Source of the DNA: Catajapyx aquilonaris | Taxonomy: Eukaryota | DNA length: 61,841 bases | Assembly: GCA_000934665.2 (NCBI GenBank) | Contig: JYFJ02002164.1 | Coordinates: forward strand, 1-61,841 | Reading direction: 5' to 3' | In this document: positions 1-45,563 of the stretch, in pieces | How the letters are laid out: every line of letters begins with the position of its first letter | Numbering within the stretch: position 1 is the first letter of the stretch | Translations under genes and position numbers: made by a program | The notes under the pieces: model-generated | What the model saw: the letters and a program-made list of their open reading frames with translations, nothing else | The model's database searches: none | Told to the model about the DNA's origin: nothing

Positions 1-1036
1 GCAATGCCTGGCAACGTCTCGGCGAGTTTATACGGATCCATTGTTTGGTGAACATGTGGTAGATGTCAACATGGCAACGCCTAGCAACACGCCGCGTACG
101 GTAGCGATACGGTAGTGTTTGAATTTCGCGGGCGGATGTGACGTCATGATTTGGCCCAAACTTTGGTGGCCTTGTGAGCCCTAACCAGGCCTCGTAGAGC
201 AATATGACCTTCACTTCCATATACTGATTTTTCAAAAGGAATTCCGCTACCTGAAGCTTGTCCGCCATTTACCGACCACCCTGTATAAAGTGTGCAGCAT
301 TATTTTATTGCCCATGTCGAGACCTTTATTCTTGCATGGCACTGGCATCGTCAAATACGTTGTCTTGGTCCAATCTTGTGTTGAACTTGCTGGCAAACAT
401 GCAGCAATTCCGCAAATATGCGAAAGACGATATAAAAATAAAGACGACATAATTATAATCAAGGGACCCTGAATTCGCTGGAAAAGGCCTCGGACCAAGG
501 CCACTCACCAAGGCCACTCGAGCATTCCGGAATTTAATTACAACAAGACACATGGATCAAGTTAAAAGGAAGGGGACAGGATATGACCCTGCTCTTGTTC
601 AGATAAGCTCACAGTCTTGATAAGCCATATCTTGCATTCATTCATTCACACATCTCTCCCCCTACATCACCCCCAAGTCCTCCCCCTCCCCCCTCAAAAT
701 CGCAGGTCAGCTGTTGCCCGTGATGTGACTCCTTTGCACAACCTCATCTGCCCCTCCACCTCCGTCCCACCTCATCCAATCACCTCCACCTGGTCACTCG
801 CCCTGGTCATGAACCGTATGTTGATACTGTATCAATGGCCACCACTCCCTATAGTGACACTGCCACTGGCAGCGCGTCTTGCGGGACAAAGGCTAACCGC
901 CTAACATAGAATTTGGAAAAAGCCAAACGACAATATCTTTCATTCTGATAGTACATGTACTCATTTGACACCCTGTAGCTGCCAGTGGATATGTAACCAA
1001 TCAATAGATGAGTTGGCCAACAAATGCTTATCCATT

Positions 1037-1200
1037 AGTACAGTGATGGACATTAACAGTGTTGTGCTGGTGGTGCCACAGGCGCTGGTGGCAAAAGAGG
1101 AAATAAAAGTGATGAATTAGCAACCAATTCAATTCACTCTTTTGCCGCCAATGGTTCGTGGCGCCACCAGTACGACATCATTAATGTCCAGCAATGTACT
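1037..1200. mobile_element. Small degenerate MITE-like inverted repeat
   Basis: ~60-bp imperfect inverted arms (gtacagtgatggacattaac...ggcaaaagag / ctcttttgcc...attaatgtccagcaatgtac) around a short spacer. Confidence 0.6.
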
Positions 1201-1313
1201 GCAGAGTTACCAAATATATTAAAATTGGCCTGTTTTCTAAGGAATGCATTTATTTATCACATGGATCATGAGTCCCTCTTGCTCCTAACCAAGTGGCACA
1301 ACATTGTACTTAC

Positions 1314-4300
1314 CACATGAAAGGTCTGTTCTCCAGTATCCTGGTGGTTGTCTCGCCTCCATCTGTACTTATTATTGACTGCTGCTGCACGCATGCCCCG
1401 CTCACTCTTCTGGTGAAGGACGGCTGTGACTGTGTTGGCATGAATGCAATAATGGCCTGTCAGAACTGCTCCATGACGTGGAACACGTGTGCGCAGGGTG
1501 CTCACAGTGGACACAGGTTCATCTGGAGTAGTTAGCATCAAGCACAGGCCCTCTGGGAAAAACCTGCATTAAAATGAACGGGTCAAATACTAATCACATG
1601 ACCGTAGGAAATAAAAATGTGATTGGTTTTACTTTTCTTCAATAACTTGCAGATGAATGTTATCCTTTGCATCTTTTATCCACTTGCATCAACCTTCAGT
1701 TTCAGTATTACAGGTAGCCATAAGGAGAATTGTAAATTCAAATCCAAGTAGAGACAATCAAATAATGGACATTAAACTCACAACAAACTTGGAAAGCTAG
1801 CTGACATAAATTCATGCACCTACAAGCATCATGGTCATCCTGAACCTGGCTATTCCTACATCACTATCACCCATTACATTTGAAGGGCTCAGGAGAAAAA
1901 TGTGATAACCGCCAGTAAAAATTGCAAAAAGTTCTTGGCCTGATTTTTTTCCACAGAAACAAATAAAGCACAGATGAAGGTGTCCTCTGGCAGGGAGTAC
2001 CTTCATGAGTATCCGTGAATTTTTTCCCACCTGCAGAGAGAGTCAGTCGCTGGCAGTCAGCCTGTGAGTGACCGAGGGTATTTGGTGCCCGCTGAATTTT
2101 CATTTCACGCGAAAATGACTGAACAACTTGAATAGGGTATGACCCACGACTCGTCATCAGTCATCACAGTGTTCAGGAAGTCGGGGTCACCGTTTGAGGA
2201 GTCCAGAATGTCCAGCAAGACTTGCAGCTCTGCCGGTAGGTAGCTTTGGCATGAATTGAACGTCTCAGGAGTAAAGCCTGTTAACCACCATGGCAGTGGG
2301 CTCACAGGCTGACCTTTAGCGACTGGTGCTCCCTGCAGGCGGGAAAATATTCACAAATACTCACGAAGGTATCCACACATGCCCACAGAAGGACACCCCC
2401 TGTGCTTCATTTGTTTCTGCGGAAATAAATCAGGCTAAGAACTTTTGGCATTTTTCACTGCCGGTTATCACATTTTTCTCCCAAGCCCTCCTATCACATT
2501 ATTCATTCCATTAGGCCAGTGTACATAATGGCTTTTTAAATGCAGTTGCAGTTGACAAAAACTTGTGAAGGGGTTAACTCGATTTGCATGTTCACAGCTC
2601 AACCTCATGTCGAGTCACACTGACCAGGAAATGCCAACCCTGTGGTTCAAAATTTTGGCCCTAAAGGGAGTAAAAGTAAGCTCTCTCAGGCACAGGTAGG
2701 CACATGGTAGGCACAGGGAGCTCCCACACTAGGTTAAGGCAAGATGGTAAGGTATAGTAAACTATGACCTCATAGGGATGGGGAAGGGGGGCAGGTGCAC
2801 CCTAAGAAAGTGCACGTTGGCATTTCTTGGGAAACATTAGATCTGATTTTGGATCAGATTTGAGTAACTCTGCCATTGTTTTTTGTAGTGAATACACATC
2901 CAGCTCAACCTGGGTTCAAGCTCACTCTTGAGCCAGAATTATTCAACCCCCATGATTTGTGCAGTCAAATTTTATTTATTTATTTAGCTTTACCCCATTA
3001 GAGGGAACAGAGCCCTTGGGTGGGTTACCACCATTTTTTCTTACGAAATTTTCTCCGGTGCAGGGGTCAGGATAGGGATTTGTGAAGGGGGGATACGGGT
3101 GCAAGTGCGATGTCCGAAATTTGGGGGTCATGTGCAGTCCCCCAGGGGGCCAAGCTATAAGCCACTCCCCTAGGTGCGGGTCAGAAACTCCCCACCGACA
3201 CCACACCTCCTCAAGGACAGGACGAGGATAGGAAAGGAAGGAAGCGGCTGAGGCCTATTTTTATATATGATGGGGGGAGGGGGAGAGAGAAGAGTAGTGG
3301 CGGCGTAAGAGTGAAAGTACACCACACATTACAAGTAATTTACTCATTGACAACTTCAAGCCATCAGACACATACCTCAGATATCTGAAGTACTCAACAA
3401 GATGCCAGGGTCTGTAGAACTGGTCCTGAAAGCTGTTCTCTCCTGGACGTACATAAGTTGTCTTACTTATGTAACACCCATTGAACCTCACTCTTGGCCT
3501 CTCGATGTACATGTGGCGCCAGGATGAATATATTGGAAATGGTGAGCAGTTCCTTCCCCACACGCTGCAAGATTGAAAACACAAACTCTGTTTATATCAC
3601 AATTGGTTAATTTAATGCCTGGAACATTAATCAAATGCACAAAATTAAAACTTCAACAATTACAGCTTAGCCATCAAATGATCACATTCTGCAACTTCCC
3701 ATGAAACCTGCTAACCACTGTCAGTGCATCCAAAGAGTGGAATAACAAGCAATCATTGATAATAAATACCCACTCTGGAATTCATAAGATTTTCACTCTT
3801 TTCCATGTATTTGATAGCTAGTAAAAGAAGCCAAATTAAATGGTCTTACCGCATGCATGAAAGTCGCCACAATTCTGAATCCCTACTGCACAGGTAAAAT
3901 CCCCTGCAGACTTTTGACACTGTCTCCAGCGACCTGAGATCCAATTCAGATGAAATCACCCACTTGAGGATGTACAAAAGTACTTCCTTTGGAAGGGCTG
4001 AAATGTGGGTGCACTGAAAGGGCCCACCGGAAAACAGAGAGAGGGTCAGGTGACTCATACCAATACAAACAATACTGATGGTTTTCCATAATAGTATCAT
4101 GACGAACTTACTTTCACTTCCTTCGCAGGTTCACACAAGGGAAGATTTCCATAAAACATGCGTTGAAAGCGAAGAATCAAGTCAACATGCTCAGCTGCTT
4201 CTTCATCATCACTTCCATTGTTGTTGGTCACATCACTCTCACTGATGGTTCCTGAAACGAGAGATTGCAATTTACAATGTATTTTAATTTGTGCGATTTC

Positions 4301-5627
4301 CACAATGGTGTATCATGTGTAACCTTGACTAGAGCCGCTCCCCTTGCGCACATGTGTCCTGGTTTTAGGACCATTATATGTGCGAAACTCGATGTCAGGG
4401 ACCAATTGGACTGCCCTGCGATAATATTGTATGGCCTCATACAGCTTGCCAATCTGCTCATGATGTACTCCTTGAAGAAATAAGTGACGTGCCTGGAATA
4501 AGCAGGTATGGTAAGGTACTGCACAGACATGTGGTAATGACTATAACCAAAATACTGTACTTCAAATAACCCCAAAATCAACAACATAATAAATTCATTA
4601 ATAATCATCATCAGTAACAATGTAGAAAGGTGTGAGGTGATTAACTGACACTGCCCAAGACAAAAACTTCAAGCAGTGCTAATCATCACCTACTTTGATC
4701 TTGCACGCCTTGGCTACAGTTTAGGTGACACTGTGTAATCACCAAACCAGGGTTAGCATGCCTTTAATGACTACCCTTCCGCAGAGAAATGCCCATGGTA
4801 AAATGCCACTCTGTAGTCCTGTATGTATACAATGAGATTTACTGGCAGTTTCCATGTGCCCATGTGGCACTATGTTCCAGTGTAATTCCCCATCAACTCC
4901 AAAATCCATGAAGATTACATATAAAGAAGGAAATTGGTCTCACCCTATCCTCAATGCTTTGATCATCATTTTCAGCAGCTTCCCTCCCTTTGATTGAGGT
5001 GGATGGGATGGATCTGTGTGGAGACAACTCCAATTCCCTCTTCCAAGCTTGTCTGAAGCTTTGAAGGGCACTTTCCACGTGGCTGTCGGACTGCTTTCGG
5101 TCAGAAGAACCTTGGGTTGAGTCACTTGAAGAAGAAGACTCCTCATCCTGCTCATCCCCTGCTTCTAGCTCTTCACCTCCACCTCCTGCTCCTGATCCTC
5201 TGCCACCCATTGATCCTGAGTCAGTCCTGTCTTCACCTAATGGTGACTCTCCCAATGGAGGAGGATTCCTCGTTGCAGATGACTGTAAAGATAAAAACCT
5301 CTTTGTCAGTCTTCAGGTGGAAGCTTGTGACTTTAGCCGCTACACACCCGTGCTGAATTGTCTGGTCAGCATTACATAGTGTTTTTGTTGGAACGGCTTT
5401 ATCCCGTGACGGGTTGCAAGCAAAAGGGAATGAAATGTGAGCAAAATGTGAAGCAACATCTTGTGACATGTCCTCTGCTGGTGCCTTACCCGTCCCACTA
5501 ACAACAGCACCTCTCCCTTCCTGCATACAAGTTGTTCACCTTGGCAAGGTTATAAACCCTATTTTCCACCAATCAACCTCCTTCAGACCCCACCCGCGGC
5601 AGACCCTTCATTTACCAAATTCTCCAT
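1314..5627 (-). CDS. FBXO9: F-box only protein 9 (3' terminal exon(s) not found in window)
   Basis: Phase-consistent GT-AG exons 5627-5616, 5282-4944, 4492-4324, 4251-4112, 4013-3850, 3564-3376, 1563-1314. They encode the MIT/TPR-like [36 protein letters not shown], the F-box [28 protein letters not shown], and [28 protein letters not shown]...RYLRFFPEG, all characteristic of FBXO9. Confidence 0.93.
1881..2491 (-). mobile_element. Internally deleted mariner element with long TIRs
   Basis: ~150-bp imperfect terminal inverted repeats (gaagggctcaggagaaaaatgtgataaccg / cggttatcacatttttctcccaagccctc, then TA). Internal minus-strand remnant [26 protein letters not shown] matches the mariner 'DPDFLxxxITGDESW' first-Asp motif. 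Confidence 0.8.
2624..2830. mobile_element. Possible MITE
   Basis: 15-bp inverted termini ccaggaaatgccaac / gttggcatttcttgg. Confidence 0.4.
2970..3260 (-). mobile_element. SINE-related element sharing its body with the SINE at 43894-44248
   Basis: The reverse complement shares colinear blocks (ctgaccNgcacc, gcacatgacccc, gacatNgcacttgcacc, aaatccctatcc, tgcaccgg, atggtggta) and ends in an A-rich tail (aaataaataaaaa). Confidence 0.7.
4628..4811 (-). ncRNA. Box H/ACA snoRNA/scaRNA-like RNA, copy A (FBXO9 intron 2)
   Basis: Sense to host. Three hairpins, H box AGAUCA in the hinge, ACA after the last hairpin. 175/181 identical to 6358-6538, and the identity ends exactly at ACA. Confidence 0.82.
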
Positions 5628-5878
5628 GACGCCGCCTTCTCTGCCGTGCCACAAGACAGGTGGTATTCAGTCCTCGGATTCGCGATCGGAGAAGCGAATT
5701 ACGCAGCTGGAATCCACCCTCGCTTTACACGCAGCGGCCATCTTTGTTGTGAGGTGCAGGCTGCCCACCCCAGCCCCTCCGCCCCATTTCCCTCCCACCC
5801 ACCCCACCCAAGGCCTTTCACTGCCCAACTTCCATTTCCCACCACGATGAAGCGCCACTAGTCCCCTTTCCGTCCGCC
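5628..5878. promoter_or_regulatory. Compact bidirectional promoter/5' UTR region for FBXO9 and EMC2
   Basis: Divergent ATGs only ~250 bp apart. CpG-rich, with a YY1-like GCCATCTT (~5737) and a GC-box-like ccgcccc. Confidence 0.65.
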
Positions 5879-8111
5879 ATGTTGGCGCAGGCGGACACAC
5901 CAAAGTTTACATATCCAAGTACGGAAGTGGCATCACTCTACTGGTTGGTCCAGCTAGTCATCCTTCGTTTTGATTGGGTGAGTGAGGGAATGAGGCCAGG
6001 TTGGCTGGATCGTCAACCCTTTCCCTGCAAGGAGTTGTGTAAGGATCCGCCAGGTGCCGGCACAGTATTACCCAAATGGCTGCCAAAAGGATCGGTTGGG
6101 CAGGTCTGATTTTTGCACGCGTTCTTGGGAGAGCGTCTGGTTCTCTTGCTTTCCACGCATTACTAGACTTATGGGCAGGGTTCAGTTCGGGGACTGGATC
6201 GGGAGGACCTTGCGGTTGGGTGGAGCGGATGGCAGGGAGCTTCCTGTTCTTATTTAAGCTTAATCATTGCAGTGCATATGGAGGATGCATGTGCACCTGC
6301 CCTTCGCCCACCATTTCCGAAGCCTATATCCTAATTGATGTAATTGAGGCAATTGTGGAGTGGCGTTTTACCATGGGGTTTTCTCTGCGGAAGGGTAGTC
6401 ATTAAAGGCATGCTAACCCTGGTTTGGTGATTACACAGTGTCACCTAAACTGTAGCCAAGGCGTGCAAGATCAAAGTTGGTGATGATTAGCACTGCTTTG
6501 AGTTTTTGTCTTGGGCAGTGTCAGTTAATCACCTCACATGTTTAGTCTGATAACTTCACATGGTTGGGGCTTCTGCTTGGACTAACTACTTTCTAGGTTG
6601 CCTCCCATGCAATCGCAGAGTTAGAAATGATGAGGTTAAGTTTGATAGACTAGCCAAAGTTCAGTCATAACATTTTTAATAATCAGTGTTTCAGCATTTT
6701 TCTCTGAATATTTCCAATACCAAGTAAAACAATATTCTATTTTCCCAGATGTGAGAGATCTGTTCCGGGCATGGCGTGAGGAACATGTTCGCAAAAGCGA
6801 TGAGGTTGTGGAGCTGTGGGAGACTACTTTGTCCTCCTACATGCACAAACTAGGAGATGAATGTAATCATGCATACTGATATTATTGCCTTGAAATGTTT
6901 TTTGGGCCATTTTTTAATTCGTTTTAATTTTCATTCTAGGTTGGATGGTATATGAACAGGTTGCTGTTGCAGCCTTTGACTGCAATCGTTTAGATGTTGC
7001 CGACATATGCTTGGTTGCTCTTGCTAATGAGTTCCCAGGCAGTATGAGGGTGCGCAAATTGAAGGCAATGAAACTGGAAGCACAAGAGAGGTGGGCTAAA
7101 AAAGCAAATTTTAAAACACTATTGCTGACATGAATTTCAACTACATTAAACTTTCTGCAATTATTATTTAAATCAATTTTATCCACCTTGTAAGTGACCA
7201 GATTTTAAAGCCTGACTGTAACAAACATTCTTAATTGTAGGTATGATGATGCAATTGACCTGCTGGACTCTATTATAAAGCGCGACGAGACCAACTCAGC
7301 CGTCCGTAAACGCAAGATTGCCATTTTGAAAGCTCAGGGCAAGACCACTGATGCCATCAAAGAGCTCACTGAATATCTCAAAAAGTATGGATGCTTCATT
7401 AATTTGTGAGAGTAAGTTGAATTCATCAATAACATTTACAGATTCATGAGCGATCAGGAAGGGTGGCTGGAACTGTGTGATATGTACCTGAGTGAGCAGG
7501 ACTACAGCAAGGCGGCCTTTTGCATGGAAGAGCTGGTTCTGCACAACCCACACAACCACCTCTATCACCAGAGATATGCTGAGGTCAGGTACACTCAGGG
7601 AGGAGTGGACAATATGGAGTTGGCCAAGGCCTACTTCTGCCAGGCAGTCAAGCTCAACTCGGGGAACATGCGGGCGCTCTTTGGCGTTTTCCTGGTGAGA
7701 TAAATGAGTCCTTTTTAACAGCGACAGGCCATGAACCATTATATGTGATGTGTTGATAATAATCATTCAGGTTCCGGTGTTAATTTCAAACAGTCTTGTC
7801 CCATTTTGTCACTTTAAGGAGTATGTTACATGCAATATTGCAACCAATTTTTTGGATGGATATATAAAGAAATTAGGTCATCCACTTGTCATCATTGAAA
7901 CTGATAGTCTTCTTTCACACAGTCTGCATCTCATCTCTCGGCACATCCAAAGACGCCTGCCCTGAAGAAAAAAGAATACATAAAGCTGGCCACTTGGGCA
8001 GCAAAGCAAATTGCAGAGAGATACAAGGAGAAGACTGGTCAGAATGTGGACCACCAGATATCCTCCCTGGAAGGCATGATGGGGGTGTTGCAGATTACGG
8101 CAGCTTCCTAG
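5879..8111 (+). CDS. EMC2: ER membrane protein complex subunit 2 (TTC35)
   Basis: Exons ~5879-5918, 6749-6862, 6940-7090, 7241-7384, 7442-7694, 7923-8111. Peptides [82 protein letters not shown]...[11 protein letters not shown] match EMC2. Confidence 0.95.
6358..6541 (+). ncRNA. Box H/ACA snoRNA/scaRNA-like RNA, copy B (EMC2 intron 1)
   Basis: Hairpins AGUGGC..GUCAUU, GCAUGC..GCGUGC and GGUGAU..AUCACC. H box AGAUCA at ~6468 and ACA at 6536-6538, with 14 nt from the top of the pocket to ACA. Confidence 0.82.
6561..6675 (+). ncRNA. Candidate second H/ACA snoRNA in EMC2 intron 1
   Basis: Hairpin UGGUUG..CAAUCG, A-rich hinge, hairpin AUGAU..GUCAU with upper stem GGUUA/UAGCC, and ACA at 6670-6672 exactly 14 nt after the upper stem. 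The H box is imperfect. Confidence 0.45.
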
Positions 8112-8484
8112 ACCATAGGGATTTTTTTATTTGCAGGGGGGAGGGGGTGGGGCAGTGAATATTCCCATCAACATTTCTATTCCATGTGATAACAGCAAGG
8201 AGGAGAAAAAATGACCAGAGGGGTTTTTTCCCAGATGTATTAAAATAAATATTGTCAATATAATAATATGTATAAAAGGGTGTGCTGTTTTTGGGAAGTG
8301 TTGCGATTGCGTTGGCAGAAATTAAAAAGTTGCGACAATAGTGATGGCCCCCTTATGCTCTTCTTGAATTGACTACCCAGTATTCCCTTGACTGCCTTAG
8401 TCTACCCAGAAGTACTACAAATAATTATACAAGGTGGTACAGTGCCTAAGTGAGAACCAGGCCCTGGACACCCTATAATCAGTT

Positions 8485-8780
8485 CTTATCACCTGACGGG
8501 GCGTTTTGCGGGAGGTGCTCACTTGAGAGCGCGTTTCACATCTGTAATGATCTGTAAATACATGTGGCAACCCGGACCGCGCTGAAATTAGGTAGAAGGG
8601 AAGTCTGTCAAAATTAAGAATCTCATACGGGTATGAGATTCTTCATTTCGACCGACTCTTCCCTTCTACCCAAGTTCAGCGCGGTCCGGTAGGATCGCCA
8701 CATGTATTTACAGATCATTACAGATGTGAAAGGCGCTCTCAAGTGAGCACCTCCCGCAAAACGCCCCGTCAGGCAATAAG
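8485..8780. mobile_element. Near-perfect foldback palindrome (MITE-like)
   Basis: ~145-bp arms (cctgacggggcgttttgcgggaggtgctcacttgagagcgc... / ...gcgctctcaagtgagcacctcccgcaaaacgccccgtcagg) centred on ctcatac-gg-gtatgag. Confidence 0.8.
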
Positions 8781-8955
8781 GGGGGGGTGACCAGACCCTA
8801 GTATTCTAAGGGCAAGGTGAGAAAGCATCCAACAATGTGGCAGGGTAAAACTTGTGGGTTACTCATTTCAGTCTGGTGTCATGGCAGTTAAGGCCACATC
8901 CTTCCGTCTTTCAGGTCCCTGCACAACCTCTTAAATGAGAAACTCAAAATACGTA

Positions 8956-9633
8956 CAGGGTGTCCCACAAATTACGCTACCCAGAATTACTTCCATAACA
9001 TCAACACAAATGAAGATATTGCAACAACATTTGAACTGAACTAACCTTGTCATGTGTGATTTGAAATGGCATCACATGTGTTGGAAATGGCCACCGTTAT
9101 CGGCCAGGCAGGTCTCAACACGGCACGACATATTTTGGAATCTTCTGGCCAGCATAATTATTATCCTGCGGTACTGCCGGAATTTCCTGGACGATGTTGT
9201 CCTTCAAGGCCTGGATGGACTGTGGATTGTTGCGGTACACTCTTCCTTTCAGAAAGCCCCATAAGAAGTAATCAGGTGGCGTAAGATCGGTAAGGGCGGT
9301 GACCACAGTCCCTTCGAAATGACTCGGTCGCCGAAGAAGGACTTTATTTCGGGCATGCTGACATGTGACGTGTGGCATGTCACCCCATCCTGTTGAAAAT
9401 ATCCAGTCGAAAGTTCCACATCGTTTGGATTAGGAAGCAAGGACATCCGCCGTGCGCCACTGCTTTGGTGTCATCTGGCCGATTCGTCGATCCAGCGTCA
9501 GTATTACAGCACCCACATTTGCCAGACCCATTCCAATTCCTTTCTCACGTGTTGGGGTTGCTTGAGTTCAAATTCCGTTGCAATATCTTCATTTGTGTTC
9601 ATTTCTGGGTAGCGTAATTTGTGGGACACCCTG
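8956..9633 (-). mobile_element. Non-autonomous Tc1/mariner-superfamily DNA transposon with transposase remnant
   Basis: TA-flanked perfect TIR cagggtgtcccacaaattacgctacccagaa at both ends, plus an inner inverted block. Frameshifted minus-strand remnant YFQQDG..CHTS..FFGDRVISKGLW.P..DLTPPDYFLWGFLKGRVY. Confidence 0.9.
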
Positions 9634-10270
9634 TATTTCCCAGGCCATTTTAAGACATCCAAACTAGACAACGAATTAAACATCAAGCACATTCTTTCTC
9701 TTTAGTGATTAAGGCATTCATGTAGGGCTATGGTAAGCATCATAACAAGCAGTATCAGTAATAATTTCTTCCTGTCATAAACTCTGCAACAGTAATAATT
9801 TTGGACATAAGATACTATGCTCCCTGTATAAACTGCAGGGATAAAAAGAGTGCATAGTGCCCAAGACTTCCACCTGATACTGATTAGGATTATGTTTTAA
9901 GCAAATAAAGCAAATTTAAACTAATATTCTTGCCTGAAAAGTTACATGTGATAAATTAACACAAGTTCACATAAAAAGACCTCTTAAAAACATCCTACTT
10001 GCTGGGGCCATGATGTGTGTGATGTAACTGAGAAAGAATCCAAGCTACTAATGTTTTATCTCTTGATTACTGGAAGGCATTTGTATAACCTCATGTGCAG
10101 ATTACTATAATTAATTGGTGGGCCTAATGAGACTTTTCAACCCAAACTTCAACAGTCATGTTTTTGTAAGCAAAACTATTGTTTGTGGACAATGCATGCT
10201 GGCATGCAGCCTACCAGCTAAGGAAGTGCTGCATTCCACTGAAGGATTCCCACTCAAGACTCTTCTGAGA

Positions 10271-12718
10271 ATGGTGCCACCTGGCACAATGGCGGGTCTC
10301 GTCTTACTGCTGTTTTCACTAGCTGCTCAAGCACATAATTTGGATGGAAATGTTCCAGTCATTGAAGAGACTACGGTAAGTTAATTTCTGATGGCCATAG
10401 AGTGCAATGAAGTAGTGATTTTCTACTTTTTGTGAATACAGATGGACTTAATTCGTAAAGAAGGATTCACTGCTGAAGAGCATGCTGTTTACACTTCTGA
10501 AGGTTATGTGTTGCAATTGCACCGCATACCAGGGAAAGGTCCACCAGTGCTGTTTTATCACGGCCTGTTTGGAACTTCTGCGGACTGGGTCTTGCTCTCT
10601 GGAGACAAATCTCTTGGTGACTTGACATGTCCTATCCCATTATGTACAACTTGCCTATACCTTTCCTTTGCTTAGGCTTTATTACTGCTGCTGCTGGATA
10701 TGATGTGTGGTTGGCCAATGCCAGGGGCACGTCTTACAGTCGAAACAACACAGCACACTCTGTCTACAGTCGAATGTTCTGGAAGTTTAGGTAATTTTTA
10801 CCTATTCCTAAGCACACTAGGCTGATTTTGTGTGTATCAGAAGTTGCCACTGTTGAAACCTGAAACTTTTCAAAAATGTTCATCCCATACCTACCATGAT
10901 ACTTCACTCATATTGAATTTATATTTCCAGACTTGCATACAGTTAAACAGAGGCACTCCCTTTCCAAATTGTCATAATTTCCAATTTCCAAATTTCCAAA
11001 TTGACCTTTGAGGTCACAGTATGTTCAGAAATTGAAGCCGCCACGAATAATGTTTGTAAGTGACATTGGTTACAATCATCACTCACAACGTGATTCTGGG
11101 CGACCCTTCATAAATATTATTAATTCAACCAGAGACATCATTCTTATAATAACTTATAATTATTGTCAGACCTGTAGCAGTAGTAGTAATTATAAATAAA
11201 AATAATTATCAAAATAATTACTACTACTTCTACAGGTCTAACAATAATTATAAGTTTCTTGGAGCTTGCAATCACAGTAGAGTTTAAGAATCAAGGTTCC
11301 ACTGTTCAAAACAAATTATGCGCCATAAAATAGGAGTCTTCAATGCCAAGTGTTTAGCAGGAACCACATCAATAAACTGTTTCACTTACCAGTTTTACAG
11401 AGAGCGGTACACAAGACATTCCCCAACTTGCTGCTTACATTCAACGCTTGACTGGACGCAGGCAGTTGGCTTTTGTGGGCCACTCATATGGGACTAGTGC
11501 ATTTTTCGCTGGTGCTTCAGTGAGACAGGATTATGCCCCTACCTTCAGCGTGATGGTGGCCTTATCACCCCTTGCATTCTGCCAGCATATGCGAAGCCCT
11601 CTGAGGCATTTTGCATCATTCATTCGGGTCTGTCTGATCTAATACACTCTGCAACACGTCTTCATTTTATTATGTCAAATAGGTCTTGCATAAAATGATT
11701 TTGACTCAAATGGAGCATATGTGAAATAGAAAAATCCAGTGCAAATATTGATGCCCACATTCTGCATGTGGATTTCCAGCTTATTTTGTAGTCCTATTTT
11801 GTAGGGAGTTGAGGACACACTGGAGCAAGACTTGGAAATAATGGGTGGTAATGAATTCCACCCTCGGCAACTAGTGATGGCAGCATGGACTGTGCTCGGC
11901 TGCCAAGGAAATGTACTTAATTTCAATCTCTGCAACAACTTGAGATACTTCGTCGGTGGGCTCAACCCGTACATCACAAATATGGTGAGACGAATATGTA
12001 TTTGTGATATTTGTGATAAATGTGGAAACATAGTGTATTGTGACTGCCTGACATCGCCTGCTTGCTCATATTATTTGCAGAGTCAACTACCACATTTTGA
12101 AAGACATGCCTCAACTGCTTCTAGCCAAACAATCCTTCATTATATACAACTTATGAAATCAGGTAAGGCTGAATGAAATGCTGCATCTACCAGCCAAAAA
12201 TTGTTGCAGAACACTTTAACTCAAATAGCATGTCACTTGGTTTGTTGATGGTCTATCTTTGTTACCATTTATGATTTATGATTGAACAAAATTACCCCAA
12301 CTATATCCTTGGAGTGTATTTTAAACGGAATAATTACTGAATTTCTTATTTTAGGTACCTTTTCACCATACAACCAAGGAGTAAGAATGAACATTGCAAA
12401 CTACATGAGAGAGGTACCTCCTGAATTTCCTTTGCAAAAAGTCCTCACCCCAGTTGCTCTTGTGTGGAGTGATTATGACATACTTGCTGACCCACTAGTA
12501 AGGACCTCACAAGTTTTCTAACACCATAATTTGATGAGGTGACTTCATTCCTTTTTTGTTTTCAGAATGTGGTGCAACTGAAGAGCATTCTACCAAATGT
12601 TATCAATGATTTCCGAGTTCCACACTCTGCCTTTGGAAGCAATGATTTTCTCATGAGCAACGAGGCTCACAAACTGGTGTATCCACATGTCATAGACATC
12701 CTGAATCAGCACACTTGA
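10271..12718 (+). CDS. Acid lipase (lipase 3/gastric lipase family) homolog, catalytic His replaced
   Basis: Signal peptide (MAGLVLLLFSLAAQA), EEHAVYTSEGYVLQLHRIP, HGLFGTSADW, GYDVWLANARG, GHSYG nucleophile elbow, WSDYDILA, last exon FGSNDF. Exons ~10271-10375, 10442-10616, 10676-10790, 11393-11626, 11804-11984, 12081-12161, 12355-12497, 12567-12718. Confidence 0.88.
11151..11256. repeat. AT-rich intronic inverted repeat
   Basis: aacttataattattgtcagacctgtagcagtagtagtaattat / ataattactactacttctacaggtctaacaataattataagtt. Confidence 0.7.
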
Positions 12719-35282: not shown

Positions 35283-38200
35283 CTAGAGAAACTCTAACCC
35301 AACCACTTTGCTCTCACTGTGCTTTCTCTCCCTCTCATGTTCAGATGATGAACTGTTTGGCACCTTCTCTGTCAATAAGTCTGTCCCTGCTTCTGCTCCT
35401 GGTGGTGCCTTGGGTGCTCTCCTCTTCTTTCCTCCTTTGTTCACCTGGGCGTACACCACTTGAGAACTAGGTGGTGGGCTGTCCACATATGGAGGTGGAG
35501 GAGGTGGTGGGGGCTCTTCCGAAATAGTCTCATAACCACCCATGGAGTTGCAATCATCTCCATCCACATGTTTAACTCGCTCGTATCCTGGAAGTGTCTC
35601 AGAATCACCTGAGTCAGGGAGTCGCTCATATGGCGGATACTCAGAGTCAAGTACACTCTCATAATTGGGTTCTTCTTCCTCATACCTGAACTGTGATTGT
35701 AATGTCTCATATGTAGGATCCTCAAGTGTTGCCAAGCCCACTTCCTCATAGCCTGCATCCTCTTCCTGATGTACTGACTCATACCCAGGTTCACTCTCAT
35801 TGTCACCCTGAGATACTCCATCCTGCAGTGTCTCATAACCTGGATCTACATACTTCTTGGCTCGTGGTTCATACTCAGGGCCAGATGGAACTGTTTCGTA
35901 TGGGTCAAACTTACCACCAGGTGGACCTGACTCATATTGGTAATTTTTCCCACTAGACAATGATTCATATGGGTCATATTTTTTCCCACTGCCAGCTGAT
36001 GACGACGCATCATATACATCATGCTTCTTGCTGCTAACTGAAGATGAGTCGTGGGAATCATACTTCACACCTGGTGTTGTAGGTGGTGGGTCTCTCACCA
36101 CCTCAAACTCTGAAAAATTAATCTCGGTCTTTGATCGGCGGCGCTCCTCCCACACATGTTTCCCTCCTCCATTTAACTCTAGCCAAGACGGACCAGGCTC
36201 AGGTGCATTAGAGTCACGGGTCAACTGAAGGCTCTTCTTCTTGGTCACTTTAGCATACATGTCCTCAATGCTTTTAGGAGCAGGAACTTCCAGTGATGGA
36301 CACTGTCCTGATTTTTTGGCTGAGGTATTAACACTAGCATACACATCACTTCCACCTTCACTGGTACTGCTGCTGCTACTGCTTGAGGGTGCCAGCACAG
36401 GTGTCAGTTGCCAATTAGACACTCGCTTCTCAGGCTTTGGCGATGCTACAGAGCTGGATGATGAAGCTGCAATAAAATAAAATAATCATTATTGAAGCTG
36501 CAAAGATCAATTCTTAACTATTCAATAGTCAGACTAAACATGTCGCAGCGTGAGAATTACAAGGTTGTAACTGCAATGAAAATCCTTTGTAATTACAACC
36601 TTGTCATTCTCACCCCGTGATGTATTACTGCATCCCAAAAGTAAGTACTGTTTAGCTGTAAAAATTTGACCTTGTCTGGAGTGCGCCTGAGCCACATGCT
36701 TAAGGCTGTCAACACTTGGTGGTGCTGGCGGGGTCTCATATTCATCGGTGGCAGGGTCAATCTGCATGTACACTTCGCTGTTGGTTGTGTAGGTACTGTT
36801 AGGATCCTCTATGGCAGCATACATCTCCTCAGAATCGTCAGAAACTGTGGCATAGTGGGGGTCAGACACCTCTGAAGGGAACTTGGCATGCTGAACTGCT
36901 GCTGCCCTTGCTTTCAGGGTTGCCAGAGGTTCTCTGACACTTATGCTGGTGTAACCCTCTGAAAGAATTTCATGTTGTAACATGTTAAAAATCTCTGATT
37001 ACCATGCTGTGAATATGTATGCTGAACCAGAGATTTTTCCTTCATCTCACACACTCACTTGAGTCCTGAGAGTCTCCACTGAAATGAATCTGTGGTGGTT
37101 GACCCCTTGAACTGCTACCTTCCCTGCCTTCTCTGGTGGTTGACTCCCTGCGTTGCCGCTGCCCACCACCTCTCTCCTCATTCACATGCTGCCCTCCCCT
37201 GCCTCCGTCCGCTGCATCCCTTGCCTGCTGCTGCAGTACTAATAGGGGAGGGGTCATGTAAGGTAGCTCTGGATTGGCAGGTAGTCTCCCTGCAATGGCA
37301 CTGGCAGCCAGGATGACCCCGCTGCCTGGAGTAGGGGTCCCTTCTCTCTCCTCTTGATTTGATGGGGATGGAGAGGAAATGCGCATAGGAGAAGGAGAAC
37401 CAGAAGAAGCAGGGGATGGTTTATGGGGAGGTATGACAGAAGGGTGAGAGGAGCGTTGCAGGGCTCCCCTCGGGGGAGGAGAGGGATGAGGTGGGTCCAG
37501 TTGGCTCGTAGAAGGGCTTGGAAGACTCTCACCCCTGCAATATTTTAAAATGTGACAATACACTTCACACAATCTTCGACGGCTTCAAGAACTGCTGGGT
37601 GTATGTGAAATATAAAAATATCTCTCTGCTAGATCAGCAGCAGGCAACACTTTTAAAATCTGAACCACAGCATAAATTTTGCACTGGCTTGGTATGCTTG
37701 GGGGGAGGTCACCATCGCCTTGTTTCCCTGCCTCCCCTGCGATATTGGCAACCTCTAAATGCCAGATCACATTGTACTCGCCGGATCTTCAAAACTCCGC
37801 AAGGTCATCTCTGTATGTGTTACCGATTTTAAATTTAAAAATATGCGCAATGACTTATGAAACAACCCACGTAAATTTCGTTCCAATATATCGATTACTC
37901 TGGTTTGCTCTTAAGAACAACCTTAAAAAGTGGCACAATCTCACCCCGTTTGACAGCGTGTCTTTTCACATGGATTCATTATCCATTGTCAACACAGTAT
38001 TACATGGTCATGTTAAATATGGAAACTACAGAGATGACAAATATTAAAGCTAGAAAGAGAGATAATAACCCTAATAAACAGTATTAACTACTGCTACATC
38101 CTTAGCTGGAAAACACCCAACTGATTATGAGTCTACATACCTATTTCTAACAGGTCGGATGTGGGGCACATCATAATTGTCTGTGTCAGTCTCATCTGCA

Positions 38201-41125: not shown

Positions 41126-42399
41126 TTCCCCAGAAGGAAGGTTCCTGGGCAATGGATCATATCAGGCCCTTTCTGTGTCCTCTCATGTCTTCAACCTGAG
41201 TAAATGACAGACCTGTGGGTATGGTTTTTAAAAGACATTTAGTCACTTGCTTCAATAGTTACAATTGATAAACCATATAGTGCACCTCAATCAACATTAA
41301 TACAGCTTTGGGGCATGTGTACCATGGTAAATGGATGCTTAGCCACAAGTTGGCTATCGCAGAGGGTAATTTCCGAGTTCCATGGAAATTTTCAGTAGCC
41401 AAAATGTCAGGTCAGAAAACCAGACCTGGATGCCTTCGGTTTCAAGAAAAGGCTGGACAGGCATAATTTTGGATGCCATGGTTTGTTTTCTCATGAACTT
41501 CTCTAACCTCCTCCTACAAAGGGCACAGAACCCTGCTATTTTTATTTCTGACCATTAAAACATTCCATGGACCTCAGGTATGATTACATTAGATGGCCAA
41601 ACACCCATTCATTATGAAAATGAATGCTAGAAGTTGATATTTTAACACATGGCCAAAGATGCTCAAAAAAATATGATCCTGACTTTGGGGCATCCACAGC
41701 ATTTTCCCCAAGGCATGTCTGAAACAGTATTAGCAGATTAAAAACTTATTATGAAAGAAATTGAATGTCAAACTATGGGCAAAAGCAACTCATATGTGGG
41801 GCAATATGGTAATGCATCTACGTCTAGAAACAAGGTAGAAAAAATGGTATCTCCCTACGTGGATGCACATTCTGGGAGCAATAACTGGATTCTTCCAGGC
41901 ATGACAGGCTTGAAGAACACACTTACTAACCTCTGGACCGCTGCACCAACTTAACAACAACCTGCACAATATTCACACATCACTTTGCTTTCTGACAGTT
42001 GGCATAACAGATTCTTGTTTCAGGTCTCAGTAATATTCTGGGCCACAAAATGGGGCACTAATGCTGCACTGGAATGATTCTGTTACACATGATACATCAT
42101 GCTTAAATTATTGACTGCCCTTCGCGGCCCTTCGTAACGCAAGGTTACGCAATGTCAGGTTTAGCCTTGTCACTAGCCTGGGGCTAAGTACTAACATGCT
42201 CGGAATGGGGAAAGAACCAACACTGTTCAACTTGGTTCAACCCCCCCCCCCCCCCCCCCCCCCANAAAAAACGTAGGCTGTCAGCTTCTCCATGTCATGT
42301 ACTCCTCGAGACAGCGTTGCCTAAAAAAATGAGGCAGTCCTGCCAATAATCCCACCCTGAGCAATGGCAAGGCAAGGTCAGAGAGTGTGGTTTAATGGT

Positions 42400-44704: not shown

Positions 44705-45187
44705 ATACGTGGGGTGTCTACAAAGTTCAGTGAATGTTAAAATAAAAGCAACAAAACAAAAGGTACAGTATAGGAATTACCTTTATTGGCCTTCAAAGTG
44801 CTCTCCATCATATGCAACACACTTTTTAAACCGTTCAGAAACTTCAGACGTTTTCAAAAGTGTGTCGTGTCTGCTGGAGATCCCTTTGAAGGCCAATAAA
44901 GGTAATTCCTATGTACCCCCGCAAGCATAAAGATGGAGACGGCCGGCCCTTTTTTGACCTTTCTTTATCCGACTCAAATTAATGAACTCTTTTTGGATCG
45001 AGTTAGCTGCTTCAGGCGTGTGTTCGTGTATTTATGTCAATATATTTTGATACCGTAATAGCTGAGATTGGCAGAGCAGCCTGCCGAAGGTGAGGGCTTG
45101 CCGTCTCCATCTTTATGCTCGCAGGTGTACCTGCCGTTTTGTTGCTTTTATTGCAGCATTCACAACACTTTTCAGACACACCACGTA
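44705..45187. mobile_element. Degenerate mariner-like non-autonomous element
   Basis: TA-bounded inverted termini tacgtggggtgtctacaaag / cttttcagacacaccacgta, plus an internal inverted block (ggaattacctttattggccttcaaag / ctttgaaggccaataaaggtaattcc). Confidence 0.6.
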
Positions 45188-45563
45188 TTGTCACATGTTT
45201 GAAACAGCAGTAAAGTTCTAGATCTGAATTGCATTCCTAAGGAGTGCTATACTGCGATGGTCTCTACTACTCATGGTTTCCCTTATCAAAATAACCACGG
45301 AATTCGAAATCCCTGATGTTCTTCTTAACGTATCCAAACCTCTTTTACCAAGACCTGCTCATTTCAGCCTCCAGATCAACAACATAGCACAACTGAATTT
45401 TCCCTAGAGACAATATAATCATAAACAACATCCTGTACTTCCAACTACCAACACACTTCAAAAAGACTGGACCAAGATGTCCCACGTAATGCTGCCCATA
45501 GACAGGCAGGCTCCATGCCAATTTGCCAGCTTCCAACCATTTTGTCTTTTCCAGATTGGCCTG

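Follow-up and report, generated by a model that had tools for sequence, protein, structure and literature searches.

The question raised by contig JYFJ02002164.1 (61,841 nucleotides (nt), analysed over its whole length and referred to here as the window) is what is encoded by an element that occurs there twice, in near-identical copies facing in opposite directions, within the introns of two neighbouring genes, an FBXO9-like gene and EMC2. A first-pass annotation of the same DNA had proposed that each copy specifies a three-hairpin box H/ACA RNA. In animals, the intron-encoded box H/ACA small nucleolar RNAs (snoRNAs) are pseudouridylation guides bound by the proteins dyskerin, Nop10, Nhp2 and Gar1. 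We conclude, with a probability that we put at roughly 75%, that each copy is a gene for a two-hairpin box H/ACA snoRNA of canonical form, with a 3′ pocket that fits, in the large-subunit (LSU) ribosomal RNA (rRNA), the site of human 28S pseudouridine (Psi) 3618.

A repeat search of the window returned a single long inverted pair, with arms of 186 nt at 4626-4811 and 6358-6543 that are 96% identical and are separated by a spacer of 1546 nt. Base-by-base comparison and blastn both placed the copies at 6358-6538 on the plus strand and 4631-4811 on the minus strand, identical at 175 of 181 positions and free of gaps, and the flanks, compared over 60 bases upstream and 40 bases downstream, matched at the random level only; the match without insertions or deletions and the unrelated flanks claimed previously are thus borne out. 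When the element is numbered from its first base in the plus copy (position 1 = 6358), the two copies differ at positions 8, 21, 22, 121, 142 and 143. Identity terminates in both arms at an ACA triplet (6536-6538 in the plus copy, 4633-4631 in the minus copy), as had also been described. Beyond the triplet come two mismatched bases and then three T residues common to both copies, and it is because these three bases match again that the repeat search gave an arm length of 186 nt. With the 3-nt tail that follows the ACA, the duplicated unit (element 1-181) occupies 6358-6541 on the plus strand, inside the inferred intron 1 of EMC2 (6104-6745), and 4628-4811 on the minus strand, inside intron 2 of the FBXO9-like gene (4492-4942). 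A blastn search with short words found no third copy inside the 61.8-kb window.

The H/ACA architecture resides in the 3′ 134 nt of the unit. The 5′ hairpin, 59 nt long, is made by element 51-109; its 7-base-pair (bp) lower stem is followed by an internal loop and then the upper stem, and its sequence is the same in both copies (6408-6466 in the plus copy, 4703-4761 in the minus copy). There follows a hinge of 12 nt, which holds the sequence AGAUCA, unpaired in the minimum-energy fold, at 6468-6473 and 4701-4696; this fits the H-box consensus ANANNA and is present, as the first-pass annotation had noted, ahead of the last hairpin. Element 122-176 forms a second hairpin, of 55 nt (6479-6533 in the plus copy, 4636-4690 in the minus copy), and the ACA box lies two bases beyond its end. 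The pocket strands of the plus-copy 3′ hairpin are 6485-6489 (GAUUA) and 6522-6527 (CAGUUA), and they complement GACUG-[U]N-UAAUU(A) in LSU rRNA. In the plus copy, only two of 200 shuffled sequences folded as well as the 5′ hairpin (z-score −2.25), and none of 200 folded as well as the 3′ hairpin (z −4.18); for the 134-nt unit as a whole, none of 200 did so in either the plus copy (z −2.67) or the minus copy (z −3.39). The full stretch of 201 nt, with the first 50 nt and the flanks included, is unremarkable (z −1.09 and −1.72).

The same architecture was sought at every ACA triplet in the window, 2795 on the two strands together. It was defined as a pair of unbranched hairpins, each 40-80 nt long and joined by a 6-20-nt hinge containing ANANNA, with the ACA no more than 4 nt from the second. 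Twenty triplets passed, and in three of these each hairpin reached −15 kcal/mol or better; the twin copies, with the H and ACA boxes of the minus copy recovered at the positions given above, ranked first and second. The third strong candidate (ACA at 36985, minus strand, with the hinge AGAUGAAGG) is borderline and has no Rfam match at the gathering score. A version of the scan that used 150-nt windows missed both copies, the upstream part, truncated by the window, being mispaired with the 5′ hairpin. The element has, then, the structural features of an H/ACA RNA that we looked for, namely the two-hairpin shape, ANANNA in the hinge and a pocket, and the H/ACA nature originally claimed for it is supported by the succession of hairpin, AGAUCA hinge, hairpin and ACA, by the shuffle tests and by the scan.

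Where we depart from the first-pass annotation is in the number of hairpins. Two of its three are the strong hairpins just described; the first, in the 5′ extension formed by element 1-50 (6358-6407 on the plus strand), folds no better than shuffled sequence, has unlike inner pairs in the two copies and is not followed by a box. In the plus copy, 30 of 200 shuffles folded as well as this segment (z −1.06), as did 49 of 200 in the minus copy (z −0.62). The only part of the fold common to both copies is an outer 6-bp stem (element 2-7 with 41-46), two pairs of which are G.U; because of the changes at element 21-22, the inner helix of the plus copy is lost in the minus copy, which folds otherwise. 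No ANANNA was found between element 1-50 and the next hairpin, and this segment holds three of the six copy differences (47 of its 50 positions are identical), compared with three in the other 131 nt. For these four reasons we reject the three-hairpin RNA, and consider it unlikely that the mature product is a three-domain H/ACA RNA of the full 181-184 nt, in which the 5′ 50 nt would be a functional extra hairpin. Such an RNA would find some support in the sharp start of the similarity between the copies, at 6358 and 4811, which lies 50 nt ahead of the canonical unit with unrelated sequence upstream, in the fact that the leader belongs to the duplicated unit and is still so nearly identical, and in the possibility of forming the outer stem in both copies. 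However, the presumed third copy described below appears to share a further 84 nt upstream with the plus copy, which suggests that upstream DNA can simply be co-duplicated. Element 1-50 thus belongs to the DNA that was duplicated, and is most likely absent from the mature RNA.

Element 35-41 (6392-6398) can pair with element 56-63 (6413-6420), which covers the 5′ side of the pocket and lower stem of the 5′ hairpin, through 7 bp with one bulge; this pairing of the leader with the 5′ pocket may be due to chance, or may be a competing structure of the precursor. It would acquire a possible role, as a built-in pairing partner of the 5′ pocket, in a broader proposal in which the copies are kept near-identical by gene conversion across the shared 5′ region, a double dose of guide is obtained from one promoter region and the 50-nt leader is functional in a longer RNA; we regard that combination as improbable.

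For the identification of pocket targets we used as references eukaryotic ribosomal DNA (rDNA) from metagenome contigs, found by a conserved 5.8S motif and mapped with Rfam. L013 and L079 are complete units, and L003 and L070 contain a full small-subunit (SSU) and a partial LSU rRNA. The motif scan also returned L026, L033 and L037, which are without rRNA and were unused, and L034, which was left out of the target scans; the rDNA unit of the latter, at 843-12561, has five group I introns in its LSU and SSU rRNA genes. The 3′ pocket of the element consists of a 5′ strand at element 126-132 and a 3′ strand at element 165-172. Its best match in all four LSU rRNAs is (U)GACUG-[U]C-UAAUUA, with 5-6 pairs on one side and six on the other, two of them G.U, and a site score of 10-11, as against 7.5 for the runner-up; the target stretch does not vary among the four references over GACUGUCUAAUUAAAAC. 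The pocket top (element 165) is 14 nt before the ACA and, because working guides have the pocket top 14-16 nt upstream of the box, the geometry fits that of a working guide.

The human 28S rRNA context given in PMC6182160, GAAUCCGAC-Psi3616-G-Psi3618-UUAAUUAAAAC, matches the reference LSU site, and the bracketed uridine is therefore the one at human 28S Psi3618. In the same paper, Psi3618 is stated to be modified at 95% and is aligned with U1777 of Escherichia coli 23S rRNA and with an unmodified U in yeast (PMC6182160). The modified positions of every type in human rRNA number 228 there, among roughly 7,090 nt (PMC6182160), and since the L013 rRNA contains 1467 U, we estimate the chance that a random best match would fall on a known human pseudouridine to be well under 15%. 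A lenient first scan for targets of the 5′ hairpin was mostly noise; a recurrent 11-pair match in it was dropped, because it lay on the antisense strand of the rRNA. We also set aside an SSU rRNA site whose pairing with the 3′ pocket would leave three bases unpaired; our scans, in which two were required, did not return it.

The positions of the six copy differences bear on function as well. None of them falls within the 105 positions taken up by the two boxes (H and ACA), by the 5′ hairpin, and by the pocket and stems of the 3′ hairpin. Avoidance of this kind would arise by chance with a probability of 0.005 if the six sites are taken as independent, and 0.03 if the doublets are counted as single events, giving four events. 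The change at element 121, an A in the minus copy, adds one pair to the lower stem of the 3′ hairpin there, and those at 142-143 are confined to the apical loop. With two full copies only to compare, this avoidance of stems, pockets and boxes is suggestive of selection on the element. Both in the plus/minus pair and in a branch contig described below, the 3′ limit is constant, at the ACA or up to three bases beyond it, whereas the 5′ limit varies (6358 versus 6274 or further), a hint that the boundary of the repeat is set by where the RNA ends at its 3′ side, or by selection reaching that far.

The number of copies in the genome was gauged from the contigs of three DNA runs (X1-X3), all of a single sample that may also have been the one used for the assembly. 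Contigs of single-copy sequence have a depth of about 23-24 in X1 and of 32-36 in X2 and X3, compared with 57.7, 85.2 and 65.8, respectively, for the core of the repeat (6380-6538), so that the ratios are about 2.4 in X1, 2.5 in X2 and 1.9 in X3. One branch contig, of 372 nt and near single-copy depth, has unrelated sequence entering at 6274-6320; another, of 513 nt, exits at 6541, three bases after the ACA, into unrelated sequence; and the 30-letter loose ends of both are absent from the window. The simplest reading, if both branch contigs belong to one locus, is of one further copy elsewhere in the genome, sharing 6274-6541 with the plus copy and ending at the same point three bases past the ACA; judged from the branch contig, it appears to share 84 nt more of upstream DNA with the plus copy than the minus copy does. 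A 33-nt contig with the plus-type tail after the ACA has a depth of 50 in X1. The contigs of X3 have a G at 6368, and those of X2 and X3 a G at 6499, which makes a third variant of the plus-copy loop. These data suggest about three genomic copies, at least one of them probably lying elsewhere in the genome, a point overlooked by the first-pass annotation. That annotation had held that many dispersed copies would mark the element as a repeat, and the contig depths and branch contigs speak for about three; with a depth of 1.9-2.5 times single copy, one branch contig per end and no other copy in the window, we do not consider the element to be a dispersed repeat.

The host genes were delineated with the help of a further run, X5, which behaves as a transcript assembly; its contigs here cover exons only and are uninformative on small non-polyadenylated RNA. 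One of them, on the minus strand, joins 5616-5736, 4943-5282 and 4323-4491, skipping 333 and 451 bases with GT..AG ends, and so gives exons 1, 2 and 3, respectively, of the FBXO9-like gene. Exons further down this gene have matches to TPR and F-box domains, a combination that we take to be the make-up of FBXO9. Because the spliced contig joins the exons on either side, the minus copy lies in intron 2, in the sense orientation, with 131 nt to the donor and 136 nt to the acceptor. On the plus strand, a second X5 contig begins exactly at 6746, directly after a ttttcccag acceptor, and marks exon 2 of EMC2 (6746-6862); a later exon has a TPR_EMC2 match of 48.2 bits (cutoff 27), and the EMC2 family was also recovered in the protein atlas. 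The reading frame of the exon at 6746 has no ATG upstream of that position. The coding sequence plausibly starts with an ATG at 6076, after which a GT donor in the correct phase follows at 6104; this would make 6076-6103 the coding part of exon 1 and would place the plus copy in intron 1, also in the sense orientation. The sense-intronic location claimed for the two copies thus holds for the minus copy, through the spliced contig, and is likely for the plus copy, from the proposed exon 1. With the FBXO9-like contig reaching to 5736 and the EMC2 ATG placed at 6076, the genes stand head to head within about 340 nt of each other, and a bidirectional promoter common to both is plausible from this arrangement. 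A literature search, judged by title and abstract, found no link between FBXO9 or EMC2 and the hosting of snoRNAs, and a search for mirror-image H/ACA paralogues across a bidirectional promoter found nothing.

What we observed is the repeat and its low copy number, its placement in introns, its fold and boxes and its complementarity to rRNA; from these we infer the following course of expression, processing, protein binding and modification. The copies are divergent, each in the first long intron of its gene in the head-to-head pair, and both genes would deliver the same guide. The RNA would be freed from its host intron after splicing and then trimmed by exonucleases to the protein-covered core, giving a mature RNA of about 134-136 nt (6406/6408-6541 on the plus strand, 4763/4761-4628 on the minus strand). 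Its 3′ pocket would pair with the LSU rRNA on either side of one uridine, so that this uridine would be positioned for a dyskerin-type synthase, and the residue modified would be the one at the position of human 28S pseudouridine 3618.

A number of results weigh against this assignment. The comparison with Rfam that had been proposed as a check gave no match at the gathering score for the whole window, and nothing relevant for 4400-6800 at expectation values (E) of up to 10. When the plus copy alone (194 nt) was compared with 4227 families, the top three matches were all to H/ACA families and all below threshold: the plant snoR134 (24.1 bits, E 0.0027, gathering score 40) and the vertebrate SNORA9 (20.7 bits, E 0.022, gathering score 85), both spanning 6406-6541, and the plant snoR83 (18.1 bits, E 0.34, gathering score 40), spanning 6454-6541. 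All three alignments end 3 nt past the ACA, with the H box and ACA aligned to the boxes of the models, and the sub-threshold H/ACA alignments on this copy begin at or after 6406 rather than at 6358. However, the pocket sequences differ in the alignments, and the same three families were not returned for the minus copy; the element is a member of none of the three. That copy alone gave seven matches, three of them H/ACA (snoU109, ceN42 and snopsi28S-3316), all with E above 1, and two microRNA precursors scored at a similar E; in view of this, the plus-copy match at E 0.0027 is not robust. The sub-threshold matches are, moreover, generic in kind. The Rfam result weakly favours a general H/ACA shape, and gives no ground for placing the element in any described family.

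The proposed target also carries difficulties. The reference rRNAs come from eukaryotes in metagenomes and not from the host organism, and the pairing of the 3′ pocket is short, at about 10-12 pairs including two G.U. Shuffled guide strands equalled its score on the L013 rDNA in 11 of 300 trials, a figure that is weakened by the several pocket definitions tried, and the 3′ hairpin is almost wholly paired in the minimum-energy fold, so that the pocket must open. For the 5′ pocket no convincing rRNA target was found, shuffled guides being as good in 273 and in 122 trials out of 300, and none of four definitions of this pocket outperformed shuffled guides, whether or not one mismatch was allowed. 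The 5′ pocket may be an orphan, or may act on another RNA such as a small nuclear RNA (snRNA).

Given these weaknesses, we considered whether the element might be a non-functional, low-copy duplicate, produced by a local process of inverted duplication or foldback formation, with its likeness to H/ACA RNA due to chance. Five further inverted-repeat pairs occur in the window, their arms 63-90 nt long (8485-8780, 1884-2489, 44770-44912, 9000-9602 and 44705-45188), some of them near-perfect foldbacks, and for this reason local inverted duplication may be common in the host genome. The pair at 8485-8780, just downstream of EMC2, is such a near-perfect foldback, which folds at −237 kcal/mol over 296 nt and is perhaps akin to a miniature inverted-repeat transposable element. 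A single N occurs in the window, at 42265. The lack of an Rfam family at threshold is also what a non-functional duplicate would lead one to expect. None of the five pairs, however, has any sequence in common with the snoRNA-like element, and the arms of the latter, separated by 1546 nt, lie in two different genes and enclose the intergenic region together with exons of both. No better H/ACA architecture was found in the window, the similarity stops at the ACA, the differences avoid stems, pockets and boxes, and the best rRNA match of the pocket is a known human pseudouridine site. A duplicate without function thus appears to us a poor explanation of the locus.

Further from the evidence still, and in our judgement very improbable, are the other classes of hairpin RNA to which the element might be assigned, either a small Cajal body-specific RNA (scaRNA) acting on a spliceosomal snRNA or an intronic precursor of the microRNA type, made from the 3′ hairpin. 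The apical loop of the plus-copy 3′ hairpin has the sequence UGAG (6499-6502), which is the CAB-box consensus, and the want of an rRNA target for the 5′ pocket would suit a scaRNA; but the minus copy reads GAAG in place of UGAG (4669-4670), and the best pocket match, in a comparison made with rRNA sequences only, is in rRNA. The long, near-perfect stem of the 3′ hairpin is reminiscent of a microRNA precursor, and there are weak matches to MIR3712 (E 1.3-1.7) and mir-33 (E 2.6), although such precursor matches reach only 15-16 bits against a gathering score of 94.

The two-hairpin H/ACA guide that we favour can be compared with several known systems. It resembles the animal intronic H/ACA snoRNAs in its order of hairpin, hinge, hairpin and tail, with ANANNA in the hinge and ACA right after the second hairpin, in its length of about 134 nt, in its sense-intronic position, and in having a bipartite pocket 14 nt from the box that is complementary to the sequence around an rRNA uridine. 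It differs from them in having no membership of a curated Rfam family and a plausible target for only one of its two pockets. With the human guide or guides for 28S Psi3618 it shares the predicted rRNA position, the human context in PMC6182160 matching the four LSU references. The Rfam models of human H/ACA families, in contrast, do not match the element above noise, and a literature search did not find the name of the human guide for this position. Multi-copy snoRNA paralogues and retrocopies in animals are near-identical copies in different host introns, with a similarity that ends at the 3′ end of the snoRNA. The element is like such paralogues in its near-identical copies, in their location in introns of different genes and in the shared 3′ end of the similarity. 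Unlike snoRNA retrocopies, neither copy has a poly(A) or other A-rich tail or a clear target-site duplication beside it and, unlike the products of random retroposition, the copies mirror each other at a distance of only 1.5 kb, with the shared 5′ region between them; a local DNA event fits better. The likeness of the copies may reflect either a recent duplication or gene conversion, the two origins named in the first-pass annotation.

The element is probably a new H/ACA snoRNA, a member of a familiar class whose arrangement here is neat without being surprising, and it leaves the understanding of how H/ACA RNAs work unchanged. If the assignment is true, it would provide an H/ACA guide for a conserved LSU pseudouridine, at the position of human 28S Psi3618, probably in a non-vertebrate animal, where guides are poorly catalogued, and would name two protein-coding hosts, an FBXO9-like gene and EMC2. 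The mirror arrangement of the copies across their shared 5′ region would then be a natural case for how snoRNA paralogues arise and stay alike.

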